NCBI GenBank assembly: GCA_022839105.1
Contig: JALHDH010000003.1
Span: forward strand, 66-64,065
Length of the DNA stretch: 64,000 nucleotides
Source of the DNA: a bacterium
Lineage (GTDB): Bacteria > Vulcanimicrobiota > Xenobia > Xenobiales > Xenobiaceae
Direction of reading: 5' to 3'
The notes under the pieces were generated by a model. That model was given only the letters and a program-made list of their open reading frames with translations. It was not told the origin of the DNA and ran no database searches. Below, piece by piece: positions 14,782 to 50,573 of this stretch; positions within the stretch are counted from its first letter, which is position 1; each line of letters opens with the position of its first letter. A program made the translations under genes and the position numbers.

Positions 14782-14812
14782 CCTCTGCACCTTCAATCCC
14801 TCCTTCAGCCCG

Positions 14813-14842
14813 GGACCGCTCCCGGGCTGAAGTCTGTACCGG
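14813..14842 (+). terminator. Intrinsic-terminator-like hairpin
   Basis: Perfect 13-bp stem CTTCAGCCCGGGA / TCCCGGGCTGAAG with 4-nt loop CCGC, about 30 nt after the stop at 14781. The trailing TCTGT is only weakly U-rich. Confidence 0.55.
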
Positions 14843-14877
14843 CTCGCATCGAGCCGCGGGGGCGGAGGCCCCTCCTG

Positions 14878-15852: not shown

Positions 15853-15861
15853 GGCCGGCTT

Positions 15862-16173: not shown

Positions 16174-16243
16174 GTCGACCGGTTCCTTCCCCCGCCCCGG
16201 TGGATCACGGAATTTCCTGTCCAAAGGAGAAGTCCTGCAGGGA

Positions 16244-18249: not shown

Positions 18250-18423
18250 CGTCCGCAAAGGATAGCCTCGCGCGGGTTCCCCTGGCAAGGCGGGGCGGGC
18301 TCAACCCCCCCGGATCTCACGCGCCCCAGGGGGTCCAGGCCTCCTGGAGGTCCCGGGAGATTCCGCAGGAACCGTTCGCGGCAGGACGAAATCCAAGGCC
18401 ACTCGACCGCTTGAGGAGGATCC

Positions 18424-18882
18424 ATGATCCAGGAGTTCAAGAGCTTCATCGCCCGCGGGAACGTCATCGACATGGCGGTGGGCGTGATCATCGGCGGCGC
18501 CTTCGGCAAGATCGTCTCCTCGTTGACCGAGGACCTGATCATGCCGCCCATCGGCATGCTCCTGGGCAAGGTCGACTTCTCCAGCCTCTTCATCCAACTG
18601 GCCGGCGACCCCGCGACCTCGCTGGACGCCGCCCGCAAGGCCGGCGTCCCGATCCTGGCCTACGGGAACTTCGTCAACCAGATCCTGAACTTCCTGATCA
18701 TCGCCTTCTGCGTCTTCCTGCTGATCAAGGCCGTCAACCGGATGATGGTCAAGGAGGAGGCACCGGCTCCGGCCGGTCCCGAGATGCGGGACTGCCCCGA
18801 GTGCTGCAGCCCGATTCCCGCCAAGGCCCGCCGTTGCCCGCAGTGCACGGCCACCGTCGAACCCACCGAGAGCGCCGCCTGA
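18424..18882 (+). CDS. mscL: Large-conductance mechanosensitive channel MscL with a C-terminal CxxC-x10-CxxC motif
   Basis: [44 protein letters not shown] is the canonical MscL N-terminus and TM1. GGAGGA lies before the ATG. The tail is [19 protein letters not shown]. Confidence 0.95.
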
Positions 18883-26939: not shown

Positions 26940-27182
26940 GCCAGACCTCAGGGCCGAGCTCCCCGGTGAGGGGGCGCCCCTTCCTTCCGCACAAGCCGGC
27001 TTCGCCCTTTCCCGTTTCGGGATCCCCGGGAGGCCCGAAGGCCTGGAGGACGAGCCCCCCGCCGGGCGAACTCTGGGGGTGAGGGCGGGGTTCCGCCCCT
27101 CGGCAGCCTTCCTCGGAGAGGTCCCGTCTTCCCGAGGTCGGCCAAGGAATCTGGGCTCGAGCCCCCTGGAGGTGCCCGTCGC

Positions 27183-28031
27183 GTGGCCAGGCCTGCGTCT
27201 GAATCCGAAGAATCCCATCCCGAGAAGGGGCCCGATCCGGAGTCCGCTCTCGAAACCGGCGCTCCGGCCAGGCCCGTCGAAGAGGCCCTGGCCCCGGCCG
27301 GAGAACCGAAGTCCTCTTCGGAAGAGCCGTCCCGCTCGGGCGGGATCGACTGGCTGACCGTGGCCCTGGTCCTGGTCGCCCTGCTCAACGTGGGCCTGTG
27401 GATCTTCCTCAAGCAGCGCGCCGATCAGGTCCCGGGAACCCTTCATGGGGGGGGGCTCCCGCCTCATCCCGGGGCTCCGGCGCAGATCGCCGATCCGCCC
27501 CCGTCTCCCGGCCTTCCACACCAGAGCCCCCCTGCGCTGCCTCCATCTCCTGGGGCTCCGGACCAGGCGCCTTCGCCACCGCCTTCTCCTGCCCAGCTCC
27601 CGGGTGAGGCCTCCCCGGCTCCTCCGCCTCCTCCTCCGCCTCCTTCGCCCCCATCCCCACCGGAACCGGGGTCGACTCCGCTCTCGATGGGGCCCAAGGA
27701 CCAGATCCTCCCTTGCCTGGAGATCCTCTCACAGAAGGGGGTGGACGTCGCCCCGGTCCGGGCCCTCCTCGAGGAATCCGAAACCGCCGCTCCAAGCCCG
27801 GGCGTGGGGACCCGGATCACGGGCGAACAGAAGGCGCTCGAGGCGACGGCGCTCCTGATGCAGAAAACCTTCGCCGAGGAGATGGCTCCCCTGAAGAGCA
27901 AGGCGTCCAAGGCCAAGGTCCGGCAGGTCGAGGCCCAGGTCGAGGAGGCCCAGGCCAAGGCCAAACAGGGGCGTCTGATGGATGCCGTGGATCTCTACCG
28001 CCAGGCCCTGGACGCCCTGAAGGGGGGATAG
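27183..28031 (+). CDS. Proline-rich single-pass membrane protein with a C-terminal coiled-coil-like region
   Basis: GTG start. TM segment WLTVALVLVALLNVGLWIFL. About 90 aa of P/S/A-rich sequence (PPPSPGLPHQSPPALPPSPGAPDQAPSPPPSPAQ...PPPPPPPPSPPSPPEP). The ordered C-terminus is KSKASKAKVRQVEAQVEEAQAKAKQGRLMDAVDLYRQALDAL. Confidence 0.55.
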   Translation: MARPASESEESHPEKGPDPESALETGAPARPVEEALAPAGEPKSSSEEPSRSGGIDWLTVALVLVALLNVGLWIFLKQRADQVPGTLHGGGLPPHPGAPAQIADPPPSPGLPHQSPPALPPSPGAPDQAPSPPPSPAQLPGEASPAPPPPPPPPSPPSPPEPGSTPLSMGPKDQILPCLEILSQKGVDVAPVRALLEESETAAPSPGVGTRITGEQKALEATALLMQKTFAEEMAPLKSKASKAKVRQVEAQVEEAQAKAKQGRLMDAVDLYRQALDALKGG

Positions 28032-28824: not shown

Positions 28825-30549
28825 TCACGGGCTGAGCCAGGATTCGAAGAGGGGCCTGGGCCAGGGCAGGCCCTCGGCTCTTTCCCCCAGCGGGTCGTGG
28901 TCCCGGCGCGTCGGATGACGGTAGAGCGTCCAGCGCCCTGCCGGGTCTTCGCCCCACCTGGCGATCTCCTCGTACTCCGAAAGCCAGGAACCCTGGATCT
29001 CGGGGCGTCCCACCAGGATGACCAGCGAGGTCGCCGGATGGGGCGCGGGATTGGGCGGCATGAAGTATTCCACGGTGATCAGCCGTTCTTGCAGGAGGCC
29101 CTGGAACATCAGGGCATCCACGTTCCCCGGCGCCCCCGGCTGGACGATGCCGGTGAGCCGGGTCTCGTCGGATTCCTCCAGTTCGCTCAGGACCCGCCTG
29201 GCGATGGGGCCGATCTCCTGGCTTGGAATCCCGAACACGTTGTACCGGGGAACATGCCAGCTCAGCTTTCCGTGGCCCGTCAGCCCCTGGACCCATTGCT
29301 CCGAGGGGGTGATCCGTTCTGGGAGGGTCCCCCCGAGCTGATACAGGCCCAGACCCAGCAACACGGGGGCCAGGGCCGGCCAGAACCAGCGGAATCGGCC
29401 CCACCATCCGAAGCCCAGGCTCGTGACCAGGACGGTGGCCGGGAGGATGTAGCGCGGGTGTGGCGGGACTCCCGACAAGGCATAGATCAGGGTCGAAGAC
29501 AGGATTCCGCCCAGCATGGCCAGGGTCGGGAGCCTCAACGGTCGGAGGAGGAGTCCGGCCAGGGTCCCCAGGGCCAGCCATCCGGGGGCCAGCCAGACGC
29601 AGGTGCCCAGGGTTCCCAGGAGAACCCCCAGGGCCTCCAGGGCGGGGAAGGTCTGGGCCAGATCCTGGCCGGCCTTGAAGAGGAGCATCGAGGAGGACAG
29701 GAAGTACCACCAGCCACAGACCATGAAGGCCAGCGCGAAGGCCCAACTGAGCCCCACCCCCGGGCTCCAGCCCTCGCGTCGGCGGATCCAGGCCGCACCC
29801 ACGGCCAGCCAGATCCAGGCGCCCGTGGCGCGGACGAAGCGGACGACCGGGAACTCGGGATCGAAGATTTCGGACTCCAGTCGGAAGAGGATCCCGGTCA
29901 GCACCAGGCAGGCAAGGCATGCCATGGTCAGCAGCCGCGAGCCCCTCCCCCCCCTCCAGGCCAGGATCAGGGGCCAGAGCAGGGCCGGAGCCGTGAAGAA
30001 GAGGAAGGACCACTTCGAGAGCATGCCCAGCCCCAGGACCAGGCCCAGGGCCAGGGTGGGCAGAGGGGAATTCCCGCCCCGGGAGGCCAGCAGGAAGGCG
30101 AAGAAGGCCGCCACCATGGCCAGCGTCCCCACCTCCAGGAAGTAGGCTGTGAGGTTGATGGGGAGCCAGGGGTTCCCGGCTGCCGCCAGAAGGCTCAGCA
30201 TCCCGCCTCCCCGGCCTCCGAGCTCGCGGCCGATCCACCAGGCTCCGGCGAGCAGCGGGATCAGGAAGAGGACCTGGGAGCCCAGGGCCACCAGGTGGGA
30301 GACTCCGAAGAGGCTGTAGAAGGCCGCGCTGACCAGGAACGAGAGCGGAGGATAGTCGTCGGGCAGAAGGGAGAGCCCGGAGGACAGGCGCAGCCAAATC
30401 ACCACGCCGTTCTGGATGGAGCGCCCGGAGTGTTCGGGGAGGGACTCGGGATTCGCCTGGATATAGCCCAGGCAGATCCAGGCCAGCCCGCCGGTCACGG
30501 CCAGCAGGACCAGGACCTCCCATATCCGGACTGCGGGCCTTCCCTGCAT
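28825..30549 (-). CDS. GT-C fold membrane glycosyltransferase (PMT_2 / ArnT-like), second copy
   Basis: ATG 30549 preceded by AGGAGG. DDYPPLSFLV loop motif, more than 10 TM segments and a C-terminal soluble domain. Confidence 0.7.
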   Translation of the reverse strand: MQGRPAVRIWEVLVLLAVTGGLAWICLGYIQANPESLPEHSGRSIQNGVVIWLRLSSGLSLLPDDYPPLSFLVSAAFYSLFGVSHLVALGSQVLFLIPLLAGAWWIGRELGGRGGGMLSLLAAAGNPWLPINLTAYFLEVGTLAMVAAFFAFLLASRGGNSPLPTLALGLVLGLGMLSKWSFLFFTAPALLWPLILAWRGGRGSRLLTMACLACLVLTGILFRLESEIFDPEFPVVRFVRATGAWIWLAVGAAWIRRREGWSPGVGLSWAFALAFMVCGWWYFLSSSMLLFKAGQDLAQTFPALEALGVLLGTLGTCVWLAPGWLALGTLAGLLLRPLRLPTLAMLGGILSSTLIYALSGVPPHPRYILPATVLVTSLGFGWWGRFRWFWPALAPVLLGLGLYQLGGTLPERITPSEQWVQGLTGHGKLSWHVPRYNVFGIPSQEIGPIARRVLSELEESDETRLTGIVQPGAPGNVDALMFQGLLQERLITVEYFMPPNPAPHPATSLVILVGRPEIQGSWLSEYEEIARWGEDPAGRWTLYRHPTRRDHDPLGERAEGLPWPRPLFESWLSP

Positions 30550-30577
30550 CGGGGCCTCCTGTGCGGTTTGAGGAGCC

Positions 30578-31324
30578 TCAGGCGCCCGACTCGGGTGCAG
30601 AAGGGGTCTGACCCGGCGCCCGACGCAGCACGCGCAGGGCCACCATGGCTTCACGGATCAGGGCCTCGTCGTTCCGGTTCTGGTCCACCCGGCCCCGGGC
30701 CTCCAGGGGCATCAGGCTCATGGCCAGGAGGTCCTGCTCCCCTTCCAGGTGCCAGGAGCGGGTCTTTCCCAGTGCCGCCCGGCGATCCTCGTCCAGGAAG
30801 CGGCGAAGGGCCTCCTCATCGGGGCCTCCCACCAGGTAATGGCGGTGGAACTCGGCCGGCGAGGAGAATTCCACCTGGTTGGCGACCTGTCGGAAGGCCA
30901 TCCGCATCGCCTGGTTGGCCAGGTCGGCCAGCATTCCGTCCTGGTCGAGCAGGCCCATCAGCGAGATCCTGGGCAGATCCAGGTCTTCCGAGCGCAAGGC
31001 TGCCAGGGCCGTGGCCTGGCCCTGGCCCGAATCGGCAGCGGAGATCCCGATCAGGTAGAGCCGGGCTCCCTCGACCTGCCGCTCCCAGACCTCCAGGATG
31101 CGGGGAGCCTCTCCATCCGGCCTGCGGAAGAGTTCCTGGACCCGGCGGATGGTCTCGGGATCGACGCCTCCGCTCCGGCGCAGCCCCATGCCCTCGCGGC
31201 GGGCCTGGATCTCGAGTCTGGAACGGCGCGCGCGTTGACGCGAGCGGGCCGCCAGCCAGACCGTGAGCGTGGCGGCCCCGGCCAGGAGGGCGCCTCCGAG
31301 CAGGACGGGATCCTGGAGATCCAT
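30578..31324 (-). CDS. Membrane-anchored hypothetical protein
   Basis: ATG 31324. N-terminal TM VLLGGALLAGAATLTVWLAA followed by a roughly 215-aa soluble domain. No recognised motif. Confidence 0.6.
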   Translation of the reverse strand: MDLQDPVLLGGALLAGAATLTVWLAARSRQRARRSRLEIQARREGMGLRRSGGVDPETIRRVQELFRRPDGEAPRILEVWERQVEGARLYLIGISAADSGQGQATALAALRSEDLDLPRISLMGLLDQDGMLADLANQAMRMAFRQVANQVEFSSPAEFHRHYLVGGPDEEALRRFLDEDRRAALGKTRSWHLEGEQDLLAMSLMPLEARGRVDQNRNDEALIREAMVALRVLRRAPGQTPSAPESGA

Positions 31325-35106: not shown

Positions 35107-37326
35107 TCAGCCTTCGCGGTCAGGCTCCGGGGCGATCGGGGGCGCCGTGGGGGAGGGCAGGCCGGCCGGCTCCCGACGCCGGCGAAGCTGGCGCCACCAG
35201 GACCCCAGTCGGCCCGCCCGCATGGCCAGCCAGAGCACGCCGAGCAACCAGAGCGCCTGGGCCAGGCCGGTCAGGGCCGGCTCAAGCCAGGTCCCGCCCA
35301 GCAGGACCTCCCCCAGGACCAGAAGCGCCCAGCCCCAGGCCAGGGTCTTCCAGAACCGGTCCTCGATCAGGCGGAAGCCCCCGCCCAGCAGGACCAGGGC
35401 GAACAGGAACCAGCCCGCCGAGGCGGCCAGGGAGTTTGAAGCCCAGAGGATCTGGACGGAGGGAGCCTCCTCGCCCGAGACCATCAACCGGCTGAAGTCC
35501 AGGCTCCTCCCGGAAGGGCGCCGGGGCACCTGCGCCTGGACCGGGAAGACCCCTCGGACCAGCCCCGGGGTCCGGGCTGCCTGCGAGTCCGGACCCGAGG
35601 CAGACTCATTGCCGTCGGCCTCGGAAGGCGCGGGGGCGGAGGCCTCCAGGCTCCCCCCCAGCAGGGTGGGGAAGGAGCGGCTGTGGCGGCGCTCGGGTGC
35701 CGGAGGCTCCATGGTGCCGCCCAGGTGCAGGACCTGACGCTCGCCGGGCAGGTCCACCTGCCAGGTCATCTCCGAGATCGGGATGTCGACCCGAGGGGCC
35801 TGCAGCCGGGTCCAGGCCAGCGGGCCCGACCCGTCGACCTGCCGCACCCAGGTCAGGACGACCGGGAAGGTGGCCATCTCGCCGCCGCGGCCGGCGGAGA
35901 GGACCAGGGGGATGCGGACCCGGCCATCGGGCTCCTGGGTGGGCCGGGCCGGCCGGCCGTCCACGAAGGCGCTCCAGAGCTCGGCCCCCTCGGGCAGGGC
36001 CAGCAGGAGGCCCTGGCGGCTGTTGTTGCGGACCTGCCAGGTGAAGATCGAGAGGGCCTTGCCCTCCTCGGTCAGCAAGGTCCGGCCCTGAGCCGAGTCG
36101 ATGGTGGCGTCGAGCACCGCCACCTCCTGGCCCTTGCGGGATTCCAGCCCGATGTGGTAGGGCTGGCGGTGAGACTCATAGGCCAGCAGGATCGGCGAGC
36201 CGGCCATGGTGTGGACGGGGGCGGGCAGATCCTGTTGGACGTCGATCCGGCGGGCCTCCTGCAGATCGTCGCGGGGGAGGAGCTCCAAAGGCCCGGAGCT
36301 GCAGACCCCGATCGAGGCCTTGACCCGCTCGGCCCCTTCCAGATAGACGAAGGGCAGGCTCCAGCGGCTGTCGGCCTCCGCAAGCTCGGCCTCGGTGGTC
36401 AGTTCCACGGTCAGATCGCCCGAGGCCGGCTGGCTCAAGAGGATCGTCAGGAGGCGGTCCTTGGGTCGGTCCTCGGTGCGCCAGGAGTCGAGGTCGGGGC
36501 ATTCGACCGAGAGCACCTCGGCGTCCCGGGGGATGAGGACCTGGATCTGGCCCACCTCGTTGCGCAGGATCGACACATCGAGCCGGGCCCGGGTCTGCAG
36601 GGCCTTCTCCGAGACCCGGACCAACTGGTAGATCCGCCCGTACAGCCGGGCCTTCTCGCGGGTCACCAGGCCCCTGGCGCCGGGGTCCGCCTGGAGCGAG
36701 AGCCAGCTCAGCCGCACCGGGGGCGAGGCGTCTGCCGGCAAGGCTCCCCGGGCGATGGTCCGGGGGCCCTCGGGACGGGTCTGCAGGGGGATCCCGGGGG
36801 AGGCCTTGAGTCGGAGCTGTCGGCCCGGCACCGACATGGTCCAGGTCGAGATGGCGGTCTGGGGGACGACCAGATCCAGGAACCGCGAGGGGGAGTCCTC
36901 CTGGACCGGCAGGTGGTAGACCAGTTCCAGCCGATGCGTCCCGATCCCCCGGACCAGGACATGGCCCACGGCGTCCTTGGGGAAGACCGAGACCGGTTTT
37001 CCGTCCAGCCGGGCCTCCTGCACGATCACCCCGGTGGGGAGCAGGGGGATCTCGTGAAAGCCGCCGCCCAGGATCCGGATCGCCAGATCCGCCTGGACGC
37101 GGGCCCAATCGCCCTGGACCCGGAATCCGTACTGGCCGCGGGCCAACGAGAAGGCCACCGGGGCCGGGGGCTTTCCGGCAGGAGAGGGGGCCGGTTCGGT
37201 GAGCTTCAGGAACTCGGCCAGGGGGAGCGTCACCTTGCCCTGGGACTTCGGCGCCTCTTCGGCGCGGGCCAGGGGGATGCAGGTCAGCAGGGCGGCCAGG
37301 AGGGCCACCAGGATGCGGGCTCTCAA
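35107..37326 (-). CDS. Uncharacterised envelope protein, paralogue A (signal peptide, long ectodomain, C-terminal multi-TM block)
   Basis: TTG start at 37326 with AGGAGG 7-8 nt upstream, overlapping the stop of paralogue B (TTGA). Signal peptide (M)RARILVALLAALLTCIPLARA. Collinear similarity to B and C throughout. C-terminal TM helices and a Pro/Arg tail. Confidence 0.8.
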   Translation of the reverse strand: MRARILVALLAALLTCIPLARAEEAPKSQGKVTLPLAEFLKLTEPAPSPAGKPPAPVAFSLARGQYGFRVQGDWARVQADLAIRILGGGFHEIPLLPTGVIVQEARLDGKPVSVFPKDAVGHVLVRGIGTHRLELVYHLPVQEDSPSRFLDLVVPQTAISTWTMSVPGRQLRLKASPGIPLQTRPEGPRTIARGALPADASPPVRLSWLSLQADPGARGLVTREKARLYGRIYQLVRVSEKALQTRARLDVSILRNEVGQIQVLIPRDAEVLSVECPDLDSWRTEDRPKDRLLTILLSQPASGDLTVELTTEAELAEADSRWSLPFVYLEGAERVKASIGVCSSGPLELLPRDDLQEARRIDVQQDLPAPVHTMAGSPILLAYESHRQPYHIGLESRKGQEVAVLDATIDSAQGRTLLTEEGKALSIFTWQVRNNSRQGLLLALPEGAELWSAFVDGRPARPTQEPDGRVRIPLVLSAGRGGEMATFPVVLTWVRQVDGSGPLAWTRLQAPRVDIPISEMTWQVDLPGERQVLHLGGTMEPPAPERRHSRSFPTLLGGSLEASAPAPSEADGNESASGPDSQAARTPGLVRGVFPVQAQVPRRPSGRSLDFSRLMVSGEEAPSVQILWASNSLAASAGWFLFALVLLGGGFRLIEDRFWKTLAWGWALLVLGEVLLGGTWLEPALTGLAQALWLLGVLWLAMRAGRLGSWWRQLRRRREPAGLPSPTAPPIAPEPDREG

Positions 37327-39602
37327 GATGCCACCTCCTGCTCGGGACGATCCTCGGGTTCGGGGGGGGGCGGGTCGGACCGGCGGCGCCTGAGGAGCTC
37401 GAAGAGCCGGCCACGCTGGCGCCAGAGCCACCCGAGCCCCGGCAGCGCCAGGCCGGCCAGGGCTCCCGAGATCGGCGCCGCTGCCGGGGTCCCGTCCAGG
37501 AACCCGGCCAGGAGGATCAGGGCCAGCGCCCCCCCGGCCAGCTTCTTCCAGCCCTCGGGCCGGCCGGCGAGCCCCAGGCCCCAGGCCAGCGCGATCAACC
37601 CGGCGCCCCACCAGGCGGCCTCCAGGAGTTGGGGGCGGTAGTAGCGCACCCGCAGGGTGGGGGATTCCTCGCCCACCATCAACTGGGTGAAGCGATGCCC
37701 CCGGCCTGCCAGCGGGACCCGCACGCGGACCGGGAAGGAACCCTGGCTGGTGGTCTGGACCATCTGGGCCATGGCGCTCTGCGGGGCCTCTTCAGGCACT
37801 TCCTGGAGATCCTCGGGCGCAAGCCCCTTCCCGTCCATCTCGGCCTCATCGGCGGCCACGCCGGGAGCGGCCGCCTGGGGGGCGGGAGCCGGCCGGTCCT
37901 GGGACTTCCTCTTCTCGGCAGACCCGGAGCGCAGGAACTCCTCCTGGCCGGCCGTGACCGGGGGGGCGGGAAGGGAGGGTCCTTCTTCGGAGGGCTCGAC
38001 GCTACCCGAGAAGCCGAAGGTCTTCCAGTCCCGGGGCAGGTAGACCGCCCAGGAGAGCTGCGAGGTGGGGACGCCCGGCAACAGCGGGGCTTCCAGCCGG
38101 GCCGAGCCCAACCAGGCGCGACCGGTCTCGGCGCCCACGAAGGTGATCTCCACGGGGAAGCTGGCCAGTTCCTGTTCCTTGTGCCGAGAGGAGATCAGGG
38201 GGAGCTTGAGCAGCGGCCCTTCCTGGACGGGCTTGATGGCCTGCCCGTCCACGAAGGCGCTCCAGATCCGGGCCCCTTCGGGCAGCAGGACCTTCAGGTA
38301 CTGGTTCTGGTTGTTGCGCAACTGCCAGGTGAAGGTCGAGATGGTCCTGCCCTGGGGAGTCACCAGGGTCTGCCCCGAGGCCTCGTCGACCGCGGCCGTC
38401 AGCAGGGGAACCTGTCTGCCCAGGCGGCTCTCCACGCGGACCGACCAGGCCCCCGAGTGGGACTCGAAGGCCAGGACGGGGGGGCGGGTTCCCAGGCTCA
38501 GGACCTGGGGCGGCAACTGGGAGGGGTCGGTGCGCCGGATGCCCTGGGAGGTGTCGGCCGGCGTCAGCTCCAGGGCCTCGCTGGCCGAGACGCCCACCCA
38601 GGAGCGGGAACTCTCGGCCCCGAGGAGTTCCAGCCGAGGCAGCTCCCAGGTCGAGTCGGGGTTGGCCAGGGGGGATTCCAGGGTCAGGTTGATCTGGAGG
38701 TTTCCGCTGACGGGCTTGGAGAGGGCCAGGTGGACGCGGTGCCCGGAAGGGTCGTCCAGGACCTCCCAGCCCGTCAGGCCGGGACAGGAAAGCTCGGCCA
38801 CCTGCGCGCCCGGAGGGATCCCCAGGACCAGCGAGTCGACCTGGTTGCGCTGGATGGTGCACTCCAGGAGGAGCCGACTGCGGATCTCCCGCTCCGAGAC
38901 CTGGGACATGCCGTAGAGCCGGGCCGAGAGGCGGGCCTTCTCGCGCCTGGCCTCACCCGAGAGTCCGGGGTCCGAGGCGCGCGGGGACCAGCTCAACTTC
39001 GTGCCCTGCGCTCCGGGCAGCGGCATCCGGACCAGGGTCCGTCCGCCCTCCGGAGAGAGCTCCAGCGGGAGCGGAGGGGTGGAGTCGATCTTCAACGAGG
39101 CTCCGGGCAGGAGCATCCTGGCCGTGCCCGGGGCGCCGGCGAGGGAGCGGAACTCGAAGCTCCGGGCGGCCCCCTCGACGACCAGCGGGACATGGTAGAC
39201 CATGCGGATCCGGTGGAGTCCCCGGCCCCGGGCCAGGAAGCGGAGGGTCCCCTCCTTCTCGTAGACCGGGACGGCCGAATCATCCAGGGTGGTCCGGGCC
39301 AGGACCACCCCCGAGGCCATCAGCGGGATCTCCCGCCAGCCGTCGGCCTGGAGGTTCAGGTCCACCCGAGCGTCCACCTCCACCCATTCCCGGTCCGCCT
39401 CCAGCGAATAGCGTCCGTTGGAGAAGAAGTGGAGCTGGGAAGGGGCGGCCACCGGAGAGCCCGGCGAGGCGGCCGGCGCGCTCAGGCGCAGGTACTCCTC
39501 CAGGGGAAGGGTCACCGTGCCCCCCGGTCCGGATTCGGCGCGCAGGCTCGCGCTGCTCGCCAGCCAGAGTCCGAAGAGAAGAAGCAGGAAGCGGGCTCTC
39601 AT
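37323..39602 (-). CDS. Uncharacterised envelope protein, paralogue B
   Basis: ATG 39602 overlaps the stop of paralogue C (ATGA). Signal peptide MRARFLLLLFGLWLASSASLRA. Shared motifs VTLPLEEYL, KARLSARL, FTWQLRNN, LPEGARIWSAFVDG. C-terminal TM block. Confidence 0.8.
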   Translation of the reverse strand: MRARFLLLLFGLWLASSASLRAESGPGGTVTLPLEEYLRLSAPAASPGSPVAAPSQLHFFSNGRYSLEADREWVEVDARVDLNLQADGWREIPLMASGVVLARTTLDDSAVPVYEKEGTLRFLARGRGLHRIRMVYHVPLVVEGAARSFEFRSLAGAPGTARMLLPGASLKIDSTPPLPLELSPEGGRTLVRMPLPGAQGTKLSWSPRASDPGLSGEARREKARLSARLYGMSQVSEREIRSRLLLECTIQRNQVDSLVLGIPPGAQVAELSCPGLTGWEVLDDPSGHRVHLALSKPVSGNLQINLTLESPLANPDSTWELPRLELLGAESSRSWVGVSASEALELTPADTSQGIRRTDPSQLPPQVLSLGTRPPVLAFESHSGAWSVRVESRLGRQVPLLTAAVDEASGQTLVTPQGRTISTFTWQLRNNQNQYLKVLLPEGARIWSAFVDGQAIKPVQEGPLLKLPLISSRHKEQELASFPVEITFVGAETGRAWLGSARLEAPLLPGVPTSQLSWAVYLPRDWKTFGFSGSVEPSEEGPSLPAPPVTAGQEEFLRSGSAEKRKSQDRPAPAPQAAAPGVAADEAEMDGKGLAPEDLQEVPEEAPQSAMAQMVQTTSQGSFPVRVRVPLAGRGHRFTQLMVGEESPTLRVRYYRPQLLEAAWWGAGLIALAWGLGLAGRPEGWKKLAGGALALILLAGFLDGTPAAAPISGALAGLALPGLGWLWRQRGRLFELLRRRRSDPPPPEPEDRPEQEVAS

Positions 39603-41779
39603 GGCTCCCCTCCTTGGCCCCGGAGCCGCGCCAGGATCCAGGCCCGGTTCCGGTAGAGCCAGCAGGCCATCAAGAGGACAAGCCCTCGGGTGGCCCAGAG
39701 CAGCGCCGGCCCCAGGGGCGTGTCGGAGGTCCACCCCCGGACCACCCAGAGCCCGGCCAGGACGGTGAAGAGGATCGCGATTCCCCGCTCCCGACCGGTC
39801 TGGCGCCACCCCAGCGCCAGGGTCAGCCCCAGCGCCAGCAGGGCCAGACCGGCCTGGAGGGTCTGGGAACCGGTGTACAGGAGCACCTCGGGGGACTCGT
39901 CCGGGTTGAGGACCAGGCGCGAGAACTGGAAGGATTGTCCTCGGGCGGGGATGTTGAACTTCACGGGGAGGGTGCCCCGGCTAGCCTGCTGGACCATCCC
40001 CGAGAGCTGAGCGGACTTGAGGGCTTCGTCCTTGGAGACCTCCCGGCGCAGGGCTCGGCCCTCCGGAGCGGGCTCCGGGGCGGATTCGTTCCGGGGAAGG
40101 CCGGGGGAGCGCGCCGGTGCAGACCGGATCGTTCCGGGCTGCATGGTTCCGCCGACGTGCCAGATCCACTCCTCCAGGGGCAGGAAGACCGTCCAGTTCA
40201 TCACCGAGCAGGGCATGTCCACCCGGGGCGCCTGGAGGCGGTGTCGGCCCGAAAGGCCCGGGGGAGGCGGCTCCTGGACGTAGGTCAGCTCAACCGGGAA
40301 GGCGTCCCTGCCTTCCAGGCTCGAGGCCACCAGGGGAAGCCGGATCTCGCCCCGGGCCCCCTGGACCGGACGGGCAGGCTGGCCGTCCAGGGTCGTGGTG
40401 AGCAGGGTGGCGCCCTCGGGGAGCCGGATCTCCAGGCTCTGTTTGAGGTTGTTGCGGATCTGCCAGGTCCAGGAGGTGACCAGCTTGCCGTCCCGGGTGA
40501 CCAGGGTCAGCCCCGAGGCCTCGTCGACCGTGGCGGTCAGGACCGGAAGTTCCTGGCCCTTGCGGGTTTCCAGCCGGATGGTCCAGGGCTGGCGGTGGAA
40601 CTCGAAGGCCCGGAGAAGGGCGAAGGAGGCCTGGTCGCGGACCTCGGAGGGCAGTTCCGAGACGTCGATGGCGCGGACCCCTTCAGACCCGGCCGGCTGG
40701 ATCTCGATTCCTCCCAGCGAGCCGATTCCGATCGAGCCCTTGACCCTCTCGGCGCCGATCACCTCCGGGGCGGCGAGTTCCCAGGTCGAGTCCACCTTCT
40801 TGAGGGGCTGGGTCAACCCCAGGTTCAGGGTGTGGCTCCCGCTGACCGGAGTCGAGAGCCGGATCAGGAGATCCTTGCGCTCGGCCCGGGGCGACTCGGA
40901 CCAGCCCGCGAGGTTGGCGCAGGCCACCTCCTCGACCTCCACCCCCGAGGGCAGGCGCACCGTGAAGCGATCCACCTCGTTGCGCAGGATCGTCATGTCC
41001 ACGCGGACCTGGGAGCGGACCTCGGTCTCGGAGACGGTCACCAGGTCGTGGATCCGGGCGCTGAGCCGGGCCTTCTGCTGGTCTGCCTTGCCGCGCAGGG
41101 CGGGATCCGCCCGGAGCGGGGTCCACGAGAAGCGGACCTGGTCACCCCCTCCGGGAATGGTTCCCCGGAAGAGGGTGCGCGTCCCCTCGTCCTGTCGGGT
41201 CAGGGGGAGCGAGGGCGAAGTCTTGAGCTCCAGGCCCCGGTCCGGGATCACCAGCACGAAGCCCGAGACCGAACTGGGCGGAGTCTGCAGATCCGCGCTG
41301 CGGGTGGCCCCGTCCAGGCGGACGGGCAGGTTCCAGGTGACCTGGAGCTTGTGGGAGCCCGTCCGTTCGACCGGGAGGAAGAACCGGCCCTCCTTGCGGT
41401 ACAGGGCCAGGGGAGCGCCGTCCAGCCGGGCCTCTTCCAGGACCAGGTCGGCCGGAAGCAAGGGGACCTCGACCCAGCCGGGCTGGTAGACCTGCAATTC
41501 CAGCTCGCCTTGGACCTGAACCCAGTCCGGCCGGGCCTCCAGGCGGTATTGGCCACGCGAGAAGAGGAAGGGAACCGGCACTGCGGGCCCGGCCTGCCCC
41601 CCCGCCGGGGTGCCGGGTTTTCGGACCATCTGCAGGAAGCTCTCCAGGGGCAGGGTGACCTGCCCCTGGGCCGGGGGAACGGGTTGGTCCGCCAGGACCG
41701 GAGGACTCCAGGTGGCCAGCGCCAGCACGGCCAGCGCCAGCGCCAGGAGGCTCGAAAGATGCCACGACGAGGACCGCAT
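39599..41779 (-). CDS. Uncharacterised envelope protein, paralogue C
   Basis: ATG 41779 (GGGGGTG upstream; GTG 41785 is an alternative). Signal peptide ending LATWSPPVLA. Shared motifs VTLPLESFL, KARLSARI, WTWQIRNN, LPEGATL...LDG. C-terminal TM block. Confidence 0.8.
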   Translation of the reverse strand: MRSSSWHLSSLLALALAVLALATWSPPVLADQPVPPAQGQVTLPLESFLQMVRKPGTPAGGQAGPAVPVPFLFSRGQYRLEARPDWVQVQGELELQVYQPGWVEVPLLPADLVLEEARLDGAPLALYRKEGRFFLPVERTGSHKLQVTWNLPVRLDGATRSADLQTPPSSVSGFVLVIPDRGLELKTSPSLPLTRQDEGTRTLFRGTIPGGGDQVRFSWTPLRADPALRGKADQQKARLSARIHDLVTVSETEVRSQVRVDMTILRNEVDRFTVRLPSGVEVEEVACANLAGWSESPRAERKDLLIRLSTPVSGSHTLNLGLTQPLKKVDSTWELAAPEVIGAERVKGSIGIGSLGGIEIQPAGSEGVRAIDVSELPSEVRDQASFALLRAFEFHRQPWTIRLETRKGQELPVLTATVDEASGLTLVTRDGKLVTSWTWQIRNNLKQSLEIRLPEGATLLTTTLDGQPARPVQGARGEIRLPLVASSLEGRDAFPVELTYVQEPPPPGLSGRHRLQAPRVDMPCSVMNWTVFLPLEEWIWHVGGTMQPGTIRSAPARSPGLPRNESAPEPAPEGRALRREVSKDEALKSAQLSGMVQQASRGTLPVKFNIPARGQSFQFSRLVLNPDESPEVLLYTGSQTLQAGLALLALGLTLALGWRQTGRERGIAILFTVLAGLWVVRGWTSDTPLGPALLWATRGLVLLMACWLYRNRAWILARLRGQGGEP

Positions 41780-43274: not shown

Positions 43275-43428
43275 GGAAGCCCTCCCTGCAGGTCTTTGAA
43301 GGGTTGCCTTCTTGGGCGGGAGGGCGGGAACCTCCAGGAGTCCGGGCCGGTTCCCAGGTTGTCGGGGTCGAGATTTCCCCGGCTTTCTCGAAGGGAACCG
43401 TCCCCGCAGGCAAGAAGGAATCACTCCC

Positions 43429-44475
43429 ATGGAAACGCGCAACCTCGTCCTGATCGGCACCAGTGATCTCAACGACAGGCGGATGCTGGCCGCCCTGCTG
43501 GAGGGCAACGAATACGATGTCGCCACGGCCGGCGACTCGGGCAGTCTTCGCGATCAGCTTCGTCAGCGCCAGCCCAGCCTGATCCTGGTGGACGCCTACC
43601 TCCCCGGGATGGAGGTGGCCGACATCCTCCGGGCCATGAAGTCCGATCCCGACATGGCCGAAATCCCGGTCCTCGGCATCGTCCCGGCCAAGGATGTGGT
43701 CTTGCGCCAGACCCTGCGACGCGCGGGTGCCGACGATCTGGTGGACCGGCCCTTCGATGCGGACGAGATCCTGCTGCGCCTGCGGACGGCCCTGGGGATG
43801 CGGCACCAGGCCCAGGAGTCGGCCAACCTCGAGAAGCTGCTCTTCTCGGTGGTCTCGGCCTTCGAGTCGCGCGAGGAGGCCAAGAAGGGCCACCCCGAGC
43901 GTGTGGCCCGCATGACCCGGCGTCTGGGCGAACGGATGCAGCTCTCCCCGGCGGACCAGGAGGCCCTCTACAAAGGTGGAATCCTGCACGATATCGGGAT
44001 GATCAAGGTGCCCAAACACGTGGTCGACAAGCCCGGAGCCCTGACCTCCGAAGAGTTCGAGCTGATGAAGCTGCACACCATCTGGGGAGAGCGCATGTGC
44101 CGCCCGGTCCAGTCGCTCCAGCGCGTCCTGCCCATCATCCGCCACCACCACGAGCAGATGGACGGAAAGGGCTACCCGGACGGCCTGGTCGGAGAGCAGA
44201 TCCCCCGGCTGGCCAGGATCCTGGCCGTGGCCGAGGTCTTCGATGCCCTCTCTTCGGACCGGCCCTATCGGCCCCGCATGAGTCGTCCCGAAGCCCTGCG
44301 CTACCTCCATGAGTACGCCAGCCGCAACTGGCTCGACGCCGAGATCGTTGCGCAGTTCCTCAAGATGGTCGACGAGGAGGGCTGGCCGGAGATCCCTCCT
44401 CTGGAACACGAGACATTGAACCTCGAGAAATCGGCCGCCCCGGGGGGAATCCGGGACAAGAAGACTCCGGCCTGA
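43429..44475 (+). CDS. Response regulator with HD-GYP output domain (RpfG-like c-di-GMP phosphodiesterase)
   Basis: Receiver domain (LVLIGTSD...LILVDAYLPGMEVADIL), then HPERVA, ILHDIGMIKVP and HHHEQMDGKGYPDGL. Confidence 0.9.
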   Translation: METRNLVLIGTSDLNDRRMLAALLEGNEYDVATAGDSGSLRDQLRQRQPSLILVDAYLPGMEVADILRAMKSDPDMAEIPVLGIVPAKDVVLRQTLRRAGADDLVDRPFDADEILLRLRTALGMRHQAQESANLEKLLFSVVSAFESREEAKKGHPERVARMTRRLGERMQLSPADQEALYKGGILHDIGMIKVPKHVVDKPGALTSEEFELMKLHTIWGERMCRPVQSLQRVLPIIRHHHEQMDGKGYPDGLVGEQIPRLARILAVAEVFDALSSDRPYRPRMSRPEALRYLHEYASRNWLDAEIVAQFLKMVDEEGWPEIPPLEHETLNLEKSAAPGGIRDKKTPA

Positions 44476-44567
44476 TCCCCTCGATCAGCCGGACCCCTCC
44501 CGATTTGAGAGCCCCCTGGCCTCGCAGTGCGCATGGTCGGGCCCGGGAGATTCTGAAGGAGCCCTTC

Positions 44568-45998
44568 ATGCTGCAGTCCGCCCTTCCGGGCCTGGCCGAC
44601 CGCGTCCGCGAGGCCCGGGAATACGCCCTTTCCAGGGGGCTTTTGAAGTATGATGCCCAGGGGCAGGTGGTTCATCTCCCCTTCGCCCTGACGCCCTGGC
44701 AGGCCCCGGCGCGCTTCGTCCGGCAGGTCCGGGACCTGGCCAGCATCTTCAACCGGCTCTATGCCCGGGTCAGCCATGATCCCGAGTTCCTGCGCCAGAC
44801 CATGGAGCCCGCGGCCCGGACCGACGAGTTCGTCTCGCGGATGCTGGCGTGTCTTCCCGAGGACCCCCCTCCCCGCCCCGAGCTCTTCCTGACCCGCAAT
44901 GACTTCATGCCGCTGCAGACGCCGGAGGGGCCCTCGCCGCGCCAGGTGGAGATCAACATGATCGCCGCCTCGTTGGGGCCGGCCTCGCAGAAGGTGAACG
45001 ACCTGCAGCGCTTCCTGTATCGCGAGGAGGAGCTGGGGGGGCGGATCCTTCCGACCCGGCCCGGAGACGAGCAGATCCGGGTTCTGGTCCAGGCCTGGAA
45101 GCTCTTCGGGGATCCTCAGGCGCGGATCCTGTTCCTGCTTCCGCCCGGCGAGAAGGGCGTCTTCGACCAGCTCACCCTGGCCAGCGCGCTGGTCCTGGAG
45201 CATGGGGTTCCCATGCTGCGCTGCACCTTGGAGGAGCTGGGCCGCGAGGGCGAACTCCGGGGGGGAGATCTGTGGTTCCGAGGCCGTCGCGTGGCCATGG
45301 GCTACTTCCGTGGGGGCTATGCCCCCGGGCACTACGAGGGCGAGGCCAGTTGGAACGCCAGGCGCTTGCTGGAGGCTTCCACGGCCATTTCGGTGCCCTC
45401 CATCCCGGCCCAACTGGCGAACATGAAGATGGTCCAGGGCCGGCTGACCTCTGGTGATGTCCTGCGGCGTTACCTGTCGGATTCCGAGGCCGAGGCCGCG
45501 GCGGCCACCTTCGTGGCCATGGCTCCTCCCTCCGAGGAGATCACCTGGAGGGGGCAGCGGGGCCGGGCCCGGGATCTGGCCCTGGCCTTCCCGGAGGACT
45601 GGGTGCTCAAGCCTCAGCGGGAGGGCGGAGGCAACAACCTGTACGGTCAGGACATGGTCCGCCGCCTGGAGGCGATGCGCCCCGAAGAGGATCCGGCCTT
45701 CATCGTGATGGAATACATCCGGCCGGCCGCCTTCCACTCGGTGCGGATGGTCGAGAATCAACCCGTGGAGGGCTTGTGCCTCACCGAGTTCGGAACCTTC
45801 GGAGCCTTCCTGATGGAGCCCGGGGGGCTGGATCGGCCGATCCTGGACCAGGACCTGGGCTACCTGTTGCGGACCAAGGATCACCAGAGTCGGGAGGGCC
45901 TGGTGATCGGAGGCTACGCGGCCCTGGACGTGCTGGCCCTGGAAGAACCCGCCGGCATTCCGGAGTCCGGGGGAAGAGGCCAGGCTGGGGGGGGCTGA
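44568..45998 (+). CDS. Glutathione synthetase, eukaryotic-type (GSH_synth_ATP family)
   Basis: ATG 44568 preceded by GAAGGA. Motifs typical of eukaryotic GSS: VHLPFALTPW, EINMIAASLG, VLKPQREGGGNNLYG and FIVMEYIRP. Confidence 0.85.
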   Translation: MLQSALPGLADRVREAREYALSRGLLKYDAQGQVVHLPFALTPWQAPARFVRQVRDLASIFNRLYARVSHDPEFLRQTMEPAARTDEFVSRMLACLPEDPPPRPELFLTRNDFMPLQTPEGPSPRQVEINMIAASLGPASQKVNDLQRFLYREEELGGRILPTRPGDEQIRVLVQAWKLFGDPQARILFLLPPGEKGVFDQLTLASALVLEHGVPMLRCTLEELGREGELRGGDLWFRGRRVAMGYFRGGYAPGHYEGEASWNARRLLEASTAISVPSIPAQLANMKMVQGRLTSGDVLRRYLSDSEAEAAAATFVAMAPPSEEITWRGQRGRARDLALAFPEDWVLKPQREGGGNNLYGQDMVRRLEAMRPEEDPAFIVMEYIRPAAFHSVRMVENQPVEGLCLTEFGTFGAFLMEPGGLDRPILDQDLGYLLRTKDHQSREGLVIGGYAALDVLALEEPAGIPESGGRGQAGGG

Positions 45999-46017: not shown

Positions 46018-47622
46018 GTGTCAGAGATGAGCCAGGACGCTGACCGGGCCCGAGCCGCGAATCTGGCCCCGGGGAGGGGCTTGTTGAGGAGTGGCCGGCG
46101 GGCCTGGTTGTGGTGGCTGATCCCGATCGGCGCCTGCTGGCTCTGGTACTGGCTTCTTTCGGCCGTGGCCCTGGAGAGGATCCAGGCCCTGGGAGTGGTC
46201 GGCTCCTACTCCTTCGCAGTCTACAACCAGCTCTTCTGGAATTTCGCCTGGACAGGCAGCTTTGAACAGACCATCCACGTGTCCTACGTGGACAACTGGA
46301 TCTGGTCGGGCCATCGCTCGCCCTGGATCTTCGTGGTGGGCTGGCTCTATCACCTGGCGCCGGAACCGATCACGCTGTGTCGCATCCAGATCGGTGCCGT
46401 GGCCCTGGGGGGCCTGCCCGCCTTCGGTCTGGGCTGGAGGGTCTTCGGCGGACCCCTCGGCGGGATCGCCGGGCTCCTGATGTACCTCGGCTATCCGCCG
46501 GTGGCGATCCTGGCCCTGAGCGACTACCAGGACATGATCCTGGGGATTCCCCTGGCCGTGGCCGTCGTGCACCAGGCCTGGCGCGGGAGCCCCCGGGGAT
46601 TCGCGCTGGCCTGCCTGGCCACCGCCGCCAGCCGGGAGGAGTGGATCCTCGTGGTTCCCTGCCTGGGACTGCTGGCTCCGGGGGCCTGGAGGGAGCGTCT
46701 GGTCTGGGTGGCCCGGGCCCTGGCCGTGGCGCTGGTCTACTTCATGGTCTTGTGGTGGGTCAGCTTCGACCCTACGGCCCACGGCAGGGCGGCAGGGAGC
46801 CACCCTCGGCCTTCGTTGCCTGCCTCCTGGCACGAGGGGGTCGAAAGAGTCCACGGCGTCCTGGCACCGGTCCCCTACGCGAACGTCGATCCGGTCCAGG
46901 AAACCTGGCAGAGGACCTGGATGGGCTTCCTGAAGATCACCCGGACCCGCGATGAGCTCCGCGATTTCTACCTGGATCTGCTGGCCCCGGTCCACCTGGG
47001 GGCCGTCTTCTCTCCGTGGGCCATCCTCCCCGCCGCCGGAGCCCTGGCGGTCCACCTGACGGCTCCTCAGGATATCGGCATCGACGCGAACTGGGGCCGG
47101 GTGATCCATCATGTGGGTCCGATCGCGGTGCTGCTTGTGTTGGGGACGATCCTGGGGTTCGGATGGTGCTATCGTCGGACCCGAGGCTCGAGATGGCTGT
47201 GGATCCCCCTCGGCCTGCTGGGCCTCTTCCTGGTCATGGCGGTGGGGAAGAACTGGGCAAGCCAGCTTCGCGTGCCCTGGTTGGGCCCTCACGGAGTCCG
47301 GATGCCGGCTCCCGAGTGGGAACTGGTGGCCCAGGTGCCCCCGGAGGCCAGCATCGCCACGGATCAGCAGGCCGCGCTGCTGATCTGCAACCGTCGGCTC
47401 TGCTACACCTACGACGACAGCCTCCGGGAGAAGGCGCCGGGTCGCAGCCCCAAGGGCCTGGACTACATCCTGATCAGCAAGGAGCACCCCGACTGGATGG
47501 AGTGGGCCCGGCGCCTGGAGGGGAACCGGCTTCTGGGCGAGACCCCCAGGTATCTGCTGTATTGGCTGCCCTGGGCCGATCCCTCGGCGCCTCCCCGGCC
47601 CGCCCCATCCGGGAGCCCATGA
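46018..47622 (+). CDS. Polytopic membrane protein, DUF2079-like (GT-C-like)
   Basis: YSFAVYNQLFWNFAWTGSFEQT...WSGHRSPWIFVVGWLYHL resembles the DUF2079 N-terminal loop. More than 10 TM segments. Confidence 0.65.
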   Translation: MSEMSQDADRARAANLAPGRGLLRSGRRAWLWWLIPIGACWLWYWLLSAVALERIQALGVVGSYSFAVYNQLFWNFAWTGSFEQTIHVSYVDNWIWSGHRSPWIFVVGWLYHLAPEPITLCRIQIGAVALGGLPAFGLGWRVFGGPLGGIAGLLMYLGYPPVAILALSDYQDMILGIPLAVAVVHQAWRGSPRGFALACLATAASREEWILVVPCLGLLAPGAWRERLVWVARALAVALVYFMVLWWVSFDPTAHGRAAGSHPRPSLPASWHEGVERVHGVLAPVPYANVDPVQETWQRTWMGFLKITRTRDELRDFYLDLLAPVHLGAVFSPWAILPAAGALAVHLTAPQDIGIDANWGRVIHHVGPIAVLLVLGTILGFGWCYRRTRGSRWLWIPLGLLGLFLVMAVGKNWASQLRVPWLGPHGVRMPAPEWELVAQVPPEASIATDQQAALLICNRRLCYTYDDSLREKAPGRSPKGLDYILISKEHPDWMEWARRLEGNRLLGETPRYLLYWLPWADPSAPPRPAPSGSP

Positions 47623-49950: not shown

Positions 49951-50573
49951 GAAGGCCGTCCGGCGTGAGCCTTCTCGAGCTCCTGATCGCCTCGGCGCTG
50001 GCCCTGCTGGCGCTCTCGGCGGCCTTTCTCTCCTTCTGGCCGGCCCAGGACTACTTCCAGCAGGCCAACCAGACCTCGGCGCTCTACAACCAGGCCCTGA
50101 TCGCCCTGGATCGCCTGGCCGTCGAGATCGAGGAGGCCGGCCCCTGGGTGGTGGAGGCCACATCCTCCAATTCCCCGGTCCTGGCCCTGCCCTCGGCCCG
50201 GGATGCCGAGAACGTCTTCCGGCGCACCGAGGAGGGGCAACCCGCCTGGCGCAAGTGGATCCTCTACTACGTCTCTGCCGAGGCTTCCGGCCTGGTGCTC
50301 CTGCGGCGCGAGGTCCCCGGGACCTTCCCGCCGGATCCCTCGCCCTGGGCCATCCCTCCGGCTCTCCTGACGCCGCCGGGCCACGAGAACCGCATCATGT
50401 GCCGGAACCTCTCCTTGTTCCGGGTCTGGGCTCTTCCGGCCGACGCAGGGGGGCTGACCTGCCAGATCGAGCTGGTCCTCAGCCAACAGACCCGCCATCC
50501 CGTCGGAGCCGAGGCCCCGCTGACCCACACCGTGCGATTCCAGAGGACCGTGCTGACGAGGAACCCGCAATGA
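49947..50573 (+). CDS. Minor pseudopilin (GspJ/PilW-like) with prepilin-type N-terminal motif
   Basis: MRRPSG/VSLLELLIASALALLAL (G, then E at +5). ATGA overlap with the previous gene. Confidence 0.75.
   Translation: MRRPSGVSLLELLIASALALLALSAAFLSFWPAQDYFQQANQTSALYNQALIALDRLAVEIEEAGPWVVEATSSNSPVLALPSARDAENVFRRTEEGQPAWRKWILYYVSAEASGLVLLRREVPGTFPPDPSPWAIPPALLTPPGHENRIMCRNLSLFRVWALPADAGGLTCQIELVLSQQTRHPVGAEAPLTHTVRFQRTVLTRNPQ

Follow-up and report, generated by a model that had tools for sequence, protein, structure and literature searches.

The 64,000-nucleotide (nt) stretch analyzed here (the window; GenBank assembly GCA_022839105.1, contig JALHDH010000003.1, from a member of the Xenobiaceae in the phylum Vulcanimicrobiota) contains three consecutive minus-strand genes, designated C (39599..41779), B (37323..39602), and A (35107..37326, stop codon included), whose products belong to a new protein family. 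The family is widespread, lacks any coverage in Pfam, NCBIfam, or PDB, and displays a distinctive, obligate-tandem organization. The A/B/C module may well be a self-contained, hetero-oligomeric, and non-enzymatic platform for binding or scaffolding an exported polypeptide or an envelope polymer.

Three overlapping paralogous genes

All three open reading frames (ORFs) described in the first-pass annotation of the window are present as listed. Genes C (726 aa) and B (759 aa) start with ATG and gene A (739 aa) with TTG; the start of gene C is the ATG at 41779, with a GTG at 41785 as an alternative, and the product of gene A is identical to the NCBI entry P0001. The 4-nt overlaps of stop and start codons reported at both junctions can be read directly in the sequence. 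The C/B overlap is an ATGA at 39599..39602 on the minus strand (C stop TGA, 39599-39601; B start ATG, 39600-39602). The junction reads ...GAGCCATGAGAG, that is, GAG CCA TGA with the ATG of gene B within the ATGA, and a Shine-Dalgarno-like AAGGAGGGG is located 5 nt upstream of the B start. The B/A overlap is a TTGA at 37323..37326, also on the minus strand (B stop TGA, 37323-37325; A start TTG, 37324-37326). This junction reads ...GCATCTTGAGAG, that is, GCA TCT TGA with the TTG of gene A within the TTGA, and the sequence AGGAGG is found at 37334-37339, 7 nt upstream of the TTG. The unusual TTG start of gene A is credible, given that the orthologous B/A junctions have ATG (locus L001), GTG (L013), or TTG (L011) at the identical −4 position.

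The description of the three proteins as collinear paralogs was borne out by BLASTP, with identities of 35 to 40% and E values of 2e-116 to 2e-141. The alignments are collinear and nearly full length for C and B (35% identity, E value of 2e-116), C and A (40%, 2e-141), and B and A (36%, 3e-122), so that the paralogy is far above chance. The motif blocks VTLPL, KARLxxR, TWQxRNN, LPEGA, and G-x-(F/L)-PV are all found in the three-way alignment. Each protein covers positions 1 to 652 of the family profile and contains both the RNN...LPxGAxLWSA core and the C-terminal hairpin. The G+C content at third codon positions (GC3) is 0.90 in C, 0.91 in B, and 0.92 in A, with second-position values (GC2) of ∼0.52 in all three frames. 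One-to-one orthologs of C, B, and A, with the C-B-A order retained, are encoded in three related loci (L011, L001, and L013) from metagenome-assembled genomes (MAGs). The C ortholog in L011 is 76% identical to its counterpart in the window, and the ratios of nonsynonymous to synonymous substitution rates (dN/dS) against the L011 orthologs are 0.30 to 0.35 (0.30 for C and 0.35 for B). Based on the GC3 values, the 1:1 orthologs, and the dN/dS ratios, A, B, and C are real, maintained genes that evolve under purifying selection. A promoter and terminator scan was uninformative.

A widespread family without database coverage

Pfam searches produced no match at an E value of ≤1 for A, B, or C and nothing recurrent at an E value of ≤10 in 59 diverse family members. 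Similarly, NCBIfam produced no match for the three proteins and no recurrent family in the 59 members, the PADLOC models of anti-phage defense systems produced no match to A, B, or C at an E value of ≤1, and the family profile had no match among the PDB sequences. At the sequence level, the statement of the first-pass annotation that the family could not be placed is therefore correct; at the level of the fold it needs to be revised, since the predicted structure has recognizable nearest neighbors in ribophorin I/Ost1 and the N-domains of M1 aminopeptidases (see below). A few of the 59 members contain inserted CarboxypepD_reg domains, and some weakly match the Kustd1514 model of S-layer proteins. 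Literature searches on DUF4139 and ribophorin/Ost1-type proteins, which could not target the family directly, turned up no account of it.

A word-index search that returned 19 to 21 relatives gave the impression of a rare family. It was overturned by an exhaustive profile search, which revealed 11,209 clusters at 50% identity with E values of ≤1e-3, including 4,123 with E values of ≤1e-30. When one genome per species was scanned, 191 relatives emerged, the closest of which (77% identity) comes from a MAG labeled “bacterium UBP9_UBA6111.” Relatives are found in Elusimicrobiota, Myxococcota, Acidobacteriota, Verrucomicrobiota, Kiritimatiellia, Victivallaceae, Limnocylindria, Baltobacteraceae, and Armatimonadota; the cultured carriers in the Myxococcota include Plesiocystis pacifica SIR-1 and Paraliomyxa miuraensis. 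A single member with C-terminal transmembrane segments is encoded at 9914-12001 in locus L020, from a MAG assigned to the DPANN archaeon “Candidatus Iainarchaeum”; it could be a product of horizontal transfer or of binning contamination. The names given to family members in the source databases are uninformative: “hypothetical protein” and, in one case, an unsupported “pseudopilin PulG.” The 2507-aa JGI/IMG metagenome protein P0025 contains a pseudopilin-like stretch (LLPALGKAKAKAQRI...), which probably accounts for that IMG label.

Tandem and fused copies

Copies were counted by applying the family hidden Markov model (HMM) to the ORFs in all six frames of every fetched locus. At least two adjacent same-strand or fused copies were found in 70 of the 75 informative loci, which represent about six sequence groups. 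This is the opposite of a family that occurs mainly as single genes, the pattern that the first-pass annotation had named as speaking against a joint system. The 4-nt NTGA overlap is seen at 53 of the 71 junctions between family genes. Many of the 1,400- to 1,900-aa representatives consist of two full copies fused into a single protein. In one such fusion, P0020, the three transmembrane helices of the first copy are followed by the former signal peptide of the second, an arrangement that leaves the two ectodomains on one and the same membrane side. In locus L040, three copies are encoded as a fused pair and a separate gene. Giant proteins of 2,100 to 2,800 aa contain 5 to 9 repeats of the D2-D3 unit (profile positions 217 to 540; see below for the domain designations). 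Giant multirepeat members also contain internal transmembrane segments; one from the Verrucomicrobiota, P0024, comparable to P0025, is encoded by a stand-alone gene (locus L091) whose context is uninformative.

The copies within a locus are not interchangeable. Among 59 two-copy loci, the first gene is closest to the first gene of another locus in 58, and the same is true for the second gene, with the two partners of a locus being only ∼27% identical. The usual unit of the family is a pair in which the downstream copy is canonical and the upstream copy divergent, an arrangement seen across six sequence groups. The long, divergent partners encoded in Myxococcota and in members of the Planctomycetes-Verrucomicrobia-Chlamydiae (PVC) group had no match in Pfam. 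A, B, and C, in contrast, all belong to the canonical type, and a rough tree groups them together. Triplets of canonical-type copies were detected only in the window and its three closest relatives. With three canonical copies that group together, the triplet looks like a clade-specific variant of the usual pair.

Such arrays might also arise by easy duplication of independent surface proteins that are structural or adhesive and in part redundant, for example, those of an S-layer, a periplasmic lattice, or an adhesin. This explanation appears rather unlikely. It would fit the 5- to 9-fold D2-D3 repeats of the giants, the CarboxypepD_reg inserts and weak Kustd1514 matches in some members, the five single-copy loci, the matches of the β-sandwich strings to PrgB and integrin α (see below), which recall adhesins, and the canonical type of all three genes in the window, which suggests a lineage-specific triplication. 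It does not sit well with 1:1 orthologs of A, B, and C whose order is kept in four genomes, with the position-specific orthology of copies as dissimilar as those of the pairs, with widespread 4-nt overlaps and recurrent full two-copy fusions, or with dN/dS ratios of ∼0.3, which carry no sign of diversifying selection. The orthology in order, the match by position in 58 of 59 cases, the overlaps, and the fusions point instead to differentiated, co-dependent subunits.

Domain architecture and predicted fold

A, B, and C share a common plan that includes a signal peptide, an ectodomain of ∼600 aa, three C-terminal transmembrane helices, and a basic tail. The first-pass annotation was right about the transmembrane block, but its estimate of two to four helices can now be set at three in each protein. 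The signal peptides finish in AxA-type sites (LARA-EE, LRA-ES, and VLA-DQ). On the minus strand, the signal peptide and three-helix block are encoded at approximately nt 41690-41779 and 39656-39862 in gene C, whose product has a short basic tail, and at approximately nt 39537-39602 and 37416-37631 in gene B, whose product has an Arg/Pro-rich tail.

The anatomy of protein A was analyzed in AlphaFold2 models of the full-length chain (mean predicted local distance difference test score [pLDDT] of 78, with ∼90 in the folded domains) and, separately, of a fragment consisting of D3, the loop, and the hairpin. All features of A listed here are on the minus strand. The signal peptide (residues 1 to 22, MRARILVALLAALLTCIPLARA followed by EE; 37261..37326) was identified from the sequence and corresponds to a model helix at residues 2 to 21. 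In the mature protein it is followed by the N-terminal helix VTLPLAEFLKL (residues 32 to 42; 37201..37233) and a low-confidence Pro-rich linker; the underlying motif, G-x-VTL-x-L-x-E(F/Y), is also found in members from Acidobacteriota, Verrucomicrobiia, Limnocylindria, and Baltobacteraceae. The ectodomain is predicted to comprise three β-sandwiches: D1 (residues 55 to 212; 36691..37164; pLDDT of ∼78 to 94), D2 with its long β-hairpins (residues 225 to 356; 36259..36654), and D3 (residues 376 to 540; 35707..36201), the best-conserved part of the family (TWQVRNN...LPEGAELWSAFVDG...PL..S...FPV). The internal duplication noticed in the first-pass annotation is evident in the homology of D1 and D3, which hhalign aligns over 118 columns with a probability of 95.7% and an E value of 9e-9.

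Next comes a disordered Pro/Ala/Glu-rich loop (residues 545 to 593; 35548..35694), which has a pLDDT of 31 to 46 and coincides with alignment gaps; its length differs across the paralogs, and the acidic/Pro-rich loop of B is longer than those of A and C. The conserved β-hairpin (residues 594 to 630, RGVFPV...FSRLMV...; 35437..35547) has a pLDDT of ∼92 to 94 in the domain model, is conserved across phyla, and forms the C terminus of those family members that have no transmembrane segments. In the model of the D3-hairpin fragment (predicted template-modeling score of 0.70), the hairpin packs on D3 with a pLDDT of >90, so the disordered loop can be viewed as an insertion within D3. The three transmembrane helices (residues 631 to 718; 35173..35436) were delineated from the model (helices 631-652, 658-676, and 682-718) and a hydrophobicity scan. 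The Arg/Pro-rich tail (residues 719 to 739; 35110..35172) is predicted from its sequence to be cytoplasmic, in keeping with the well-established positive-inside rule.

The residues conserved over the 59 diverse members are mainly Pro, Gly, Trp, and Leu, along with the polar residues R433, N434, S452, S477, and D514. The HExxH, GxMEN, and CxEQ (thioester) motifs were not found in any of the family sequences inspected, in agreement with the first-pass annotation, which saw no catalytic motif; judging from these sequences, neither A/B/C nor their relatives show any sign of catalysis. The missing Pfam, NCBIfam, and PADLOC matches, the lack of catalytic motifs, and the predominance of Pro, Gly, Trp, and Leu among the conserved residues all suggest a non-catalytic role. 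The polar patch of D3 (RNN, S452, S477, and D514) can be considered a candidate ligand site.

Structural neighbors and comparison with known systems

In Foldseek searches of PDB with the whole model of A, the best matches were to ribophorin I/Ost1 (E values of 6e-11 to 5e-8 over ∼430 columns, with 6s7t_E and 6ezn_A on top at 6e-11 to 1e-9), followed by integrin α subunits and the N-domains of M1 aminopeptidases; PrgB was also listed. The M1 N-domain matches span ∼200 to 260 aligned columns with a Foldseek probability of 1.00. For the D3-hairpin fragment, the query template-modeling scores (TMq) were 0.47 to 0.51 against yeast Ost1 and ∼0.41 against the M1 N-domains, values that are lowered by the disorder of ∼50 of the 257 query residues. 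Searches of a viral structure library returned only generic β-sandwich matches. As modeled, the family shares the fold type of Ost1 and the M1 N-domains, and a relation to ribophorins is supported at the fold level only.

Ribophorin I/Ost1, a subunit of the oligosaccharyltransferase of eukaryotes and archaea and the closest of these neighbors, resembles the family in having a signal peptide, tandem β-sandwiches, a membrane anchor that immediately follows the final sandwich, and a C terminus in the cytoplasm, and in being non-catalytic, as the family appears to be. Both also share a strand motif, LPEGAE and LPEGAT in Ost1 and LPEGAELWSA in the family. However, Ost1 has two sandwiches instead of three with a long disordered loop and hairpin, one transmembrane helix instead of three or none, and a cytosolic four-helix bundle that is absent in the family, where the tail consists of 20 to 40 residues modeled with low confidence. 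Unlike Ost1, the family occurs as tandem paralogs, and the loci examined revealed no conserved link to STT3/AglB or to other glycosyltransferases of the GT-C class. Reports of OST1 are confined to eukaryotes and to the TACK and Asgard archaea (PMC11417166).

These parallels raise the question of whether the family members are true, very distant homologs of ribophorin I/Ost1 that assist a membrane glycosyltransferase or an export machine as accessory subunits and hold its substrate, with the ectodomain sitting beside the Sec translocon or a GT-C enzyme to present nascent exported chains. The top PDB rank of Ost1 for both the whole model and the D3-hairpin fragment, the similar order of parts, and the common LPEGA motif favor this idea, as do two GT-C-type genes of the window that lie within ∼4.5 kb of the triplet. 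On the other hand, the Pfam Ribophorin_I model (PF04597) had no match in the 59 members at an E value of ≤10, and comparison of the family with 23 aligned ribophorins (yeast, 21 other fungal, and human sequences) by hhalign gave a probability of 2.4%, with a domain-wise best of 31% over 18 columns; this hhalign test has low power, as the Ost1 N-domain fails to match even its own C-domain (0.4%). Other objections come from the other loci, in which no GT-C gene was found near the family, from the predominance of members without transmembrane segments, from the lack of the cytosolic helical bundle, and from the M1 N-domain, which is nearly as good a match, so that the similarity may be at the fold level only. 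Homology to Ost1 with such a function is thus quite unlikely. It is equally improbable that the ribophorin I/Ost1 superfamily has in this family its long-missing bacterial lineage, in which case the family would be an ancient, widespread prokaryotic envelope module that forms a hetero-oligomeric platform next to membrane export or glycosylation machinery.

The two GT-C-type genes of the window are a PMT_2 gene (ArnT/PMT-like; 28825-30654, minus strand), ∼4.5 kb from the triplet, and a DUF2079 gene (46018-47622, plus strand) within ∼4.5 kb of it. Among the ten genes nearest to the triplet, Pfam recognized no STT3 and, of the GT-C type, only these two. A conserved GT-C link was rejected, as no PMT_2 or DUF2079 counterpart was found near the family in the other fetched loci, those of the closest relatives included.

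The M1 aminopeptidases (leukotriene A4 [LTA4] hydrolase, ERAP1/2, aminopeptidase N, and the tricorn factor F3) share with the family the fold of their N-domain, which belongs to the same fold class as that of Ost1. In contrast to these enzymes, the family has no thermolysin-like catalytic domain, no HExxH or GxMEN motif, and no Peptidase_M1 match; the M1 N-domain is present in a single copy in a soluble enzyme, whereas the module of the family is repeated and membrane-tethered.

Several other beta-rich envelope proteins were considered. BatD proteins consist of a signal peptide, a beta-rich periplasmic domain, and a C-terminal transmembrane anchor and are found in several of the phyla that carry the family. 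However, the BatD model of Pfam matches no family member, and genes for MoxR, DUF58, or VWA proteins neither adjoin the triplet nor emerged as conserved neighbors of the family. The MuiA-like DUF4139/DUF4140 proteins, compared by HMM scans only, are beta-rich and have a superficially similar “strand-N...LP” pattern; they differ from the family in length, tandem organization, and transmembrane block, and neither Pfam nor TIGR models of DUF4139 (PF13598; TIGR02231) matched any of the 59 members at an E value of ≤10. BcsB is a large beta-rich periplasmic subunit with a C-terminal transmembrane anchor that acts as a non-catalytic guide of a membrane synthase. No Pfam match to BcsB was found, it is not among the 50 best PDB matches listed, and no synthase gene adjoins the triplet. 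In contrast to α2-macroglobulin, the family has no CxEQ motif, and the α2-macroglobulin model matched a single member of the 59, with an E value of 0.01. The first-pass annotation had set the family apart from BatD, DUF4139, secretins, and outer membrane proteins, and none of those models matched.

Genomic neighborhoods

All-against-all clustering of the flanking ORFs of ∼80 loci revealed no conserved neighbor from outside the family; the best cluster was present in 10 loci. The adjacency of lpdA seen in the window is not conserved either and differs even between close relatives. With no conserved non-family neighbor, the module appears to be self-contained. The same-strand upstream “partners” initially apparent in Acidoferrum proved to be antisense shadows of real minus-strand genes.

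Signaling genes do recur near the family. In two loci from the PVC group (L071 and L079), same-strand genes for a response regulator of the OmpR type and for a histidine kinase come directly after the family pair. Five loci, four from Acidobacteriota MAGs and one labeled Verrucomicrobiia, encode a TonB_C-containing Ser/Thr kinase downstream of the family genes at distances of −19 to +216 nt, and in L009 a Ser/Thr kinase is encoded 38 nt downstream. The window itself encodes two HD-GYP (HD_5) proteins, of which one has a receiver domain and the other a long tetratricopeptide repeat (TPR) array; one of the genes (43312-44475, plus strand) is 1.5 kb from the triplet, and the other is at 153-2402 (plus strand). 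In L011, a receiver-HD-GYP gene is located directly upstream of the triplet, in divergent orientation, at 168 nt, and L077 and the L089 group also have HD-GYP genes in the vicinity of the family.

These associations could mean that the family members are extracytoplasmic sensors or co-receptors, in which the array binds an envelope or environmental ligand and signals to the neighboring kinases or cyclic di-GMP enzymes. Such a role is unlikely, even with the two-component genes in L071 and L079, the Ser/Thr kinases, and the repeated proximity of HD-GYP genes on its side. No signaling gene is conserved (the best cluster, at 10 of ∼80 loci, includes mixed distances and orientations), the kind of signaling gene varies by clade, and the tail of 20 to 40 residues contains no known output domain and is absent in most members. 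The phyla involved are very rich in signaling genes, so chance adjacency is likely.

In another type of neighborhood, a pair of M16 peptidase genes comes 4 to 42 nt after the family pair (L029, L044, L051, and L052) or 754 nt after it (L050); all five loci are of the Myxococcota type and fall within one related clade. Together with the similarity of the D3 fold to the substrate-side N-domain of M1 aminopeptidases and the disordered loop of 50 to 100 aa inserted in D3, this might indicate a partner or inhibitor of secreted peptidases that uses the loop as a bait or tether. A peptide- or protease-associated binder of this kind is very unlikely, however, considering that the family has no peptidase domain, thioester, or HExxH motif, that the M16 neighborhood is limited to that clade, and that no peptidase gene adjoins the triplet in the window.

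Genes of VWA/Bat-type envelope systems were noticed in two loci: a MoxR (AAA_3)-DUF58-BatA operon ∼3 kb downstream of the pair in L071, from a Kiritimatiellia MAG (14568-18689), and, in L007, whose family gene is single, a gene for a VIT-VWA protein ∼1.9 kb upstream of it. There may be a weak recurrent link between the family and such systems.

Proposed role of the A/B/C module

In the preferred reading, that of a binding or scaffolding platform, A, B, and C would be exported via Sec, their signal peptides would be cleaved, and their ectodomains would reside in the periplasm, tethered to the cytoplasmic membrane, while the tails would point into the cell. Coupled translation would put the paralogs side by side and promote assembly of a heteromer, plausibly in a 1:1:1 ratio. 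Its subunits would likely touch each other through the transmembrane bundles, the loop-hairpin element, and the N-terminal helix on its tether. The natural two-copy fusions and the position-specific orthology of the copies strengthen the case for a heteromer. Such a platform would hold or organize polypeptides or polymers that have been exported, a role also assumed for the structurally similar, non-catalytic domains of Ost1 and M1 aminopeptidases, and would be neither an enzyme nor a channel nor a defense system.

Several observations weigh against this proposal. Most members from Acidobacteriota and Myxococcota end directly after the hairpin, and the C-terminal transmembrane block is present in the clade of the window, in Elusimicrobiota, and in a few others, so membrane anchoring is not essential to the function of the family. 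Similarly, five loci with ample flanks contain a single copy, and a partner is therefore not always required. The whole-chain template-modeling scores of the structural matches are low (0.18 to 0.3), and part of the match list (integrin α and PrgB) consists of generic immunoglobulin-like strings. The putative heteromer is deduced from gene order, overlaps, and fusions only, and “binding or scaffold” is the default reading of an array of β-sandwiches that has no catalytic motifs.

Other features of the window

The window also contains a gene for a eukaryotic-type glutathione synthase (GSH_synth_ATP and GSH_synthase domains; 44505-45998, plus strand), an enzyme form that is probably uncommon in bacteria. 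Two long ORFs, at 2573-6583 (plus strand, 1336 aa) and 25038-27521 (minus strand, 827 aa), have GC3 values typical of coding sequence (0.86 to 0.87) and no match in Pfam or to the family HMM. Genes for a platform protein F of type II secretion systems or type IV pili (T2SSF) and for a DUF7305 protein are found near 53441-54958 (minus strand) and 50255-51799 (plus strand). The T2SSF ORF is overlapped on the opposite strand by an ORF for an OPT oligopeptide transporter, the long N-terminal part of which is probably non-coding.

Implications

The family comprises more than 11,000 clusters at 50% identity from at least eight phyla, with no representation in Pfam, NCBIfam, or PDB. Its very regular organization, with adjacent or fused copies and 4-nt overlaps, makes the hypothesis of an obligate hetero-oligomer directly testable, and the cultured P. 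pacifica SIR-1 and P. miuraensis make genetics and biochemistry feasible. Should the Ost1-like fold stem from a common ancestor, the family would bear on the origin of the accessory subunits of the eukaryotic oligosaccharyltransferase. In particular, if it does represent a branch of the Ost1 superfamily, the module of Ost1-type β-sandwiches and an anchor would not be an archaeal/eukaryotic invention. The biology of the family may also turn out to be ordinary structural biology of the cell envelope; even as a structural envelope component, it would still provide a new domain family for genome annotation.

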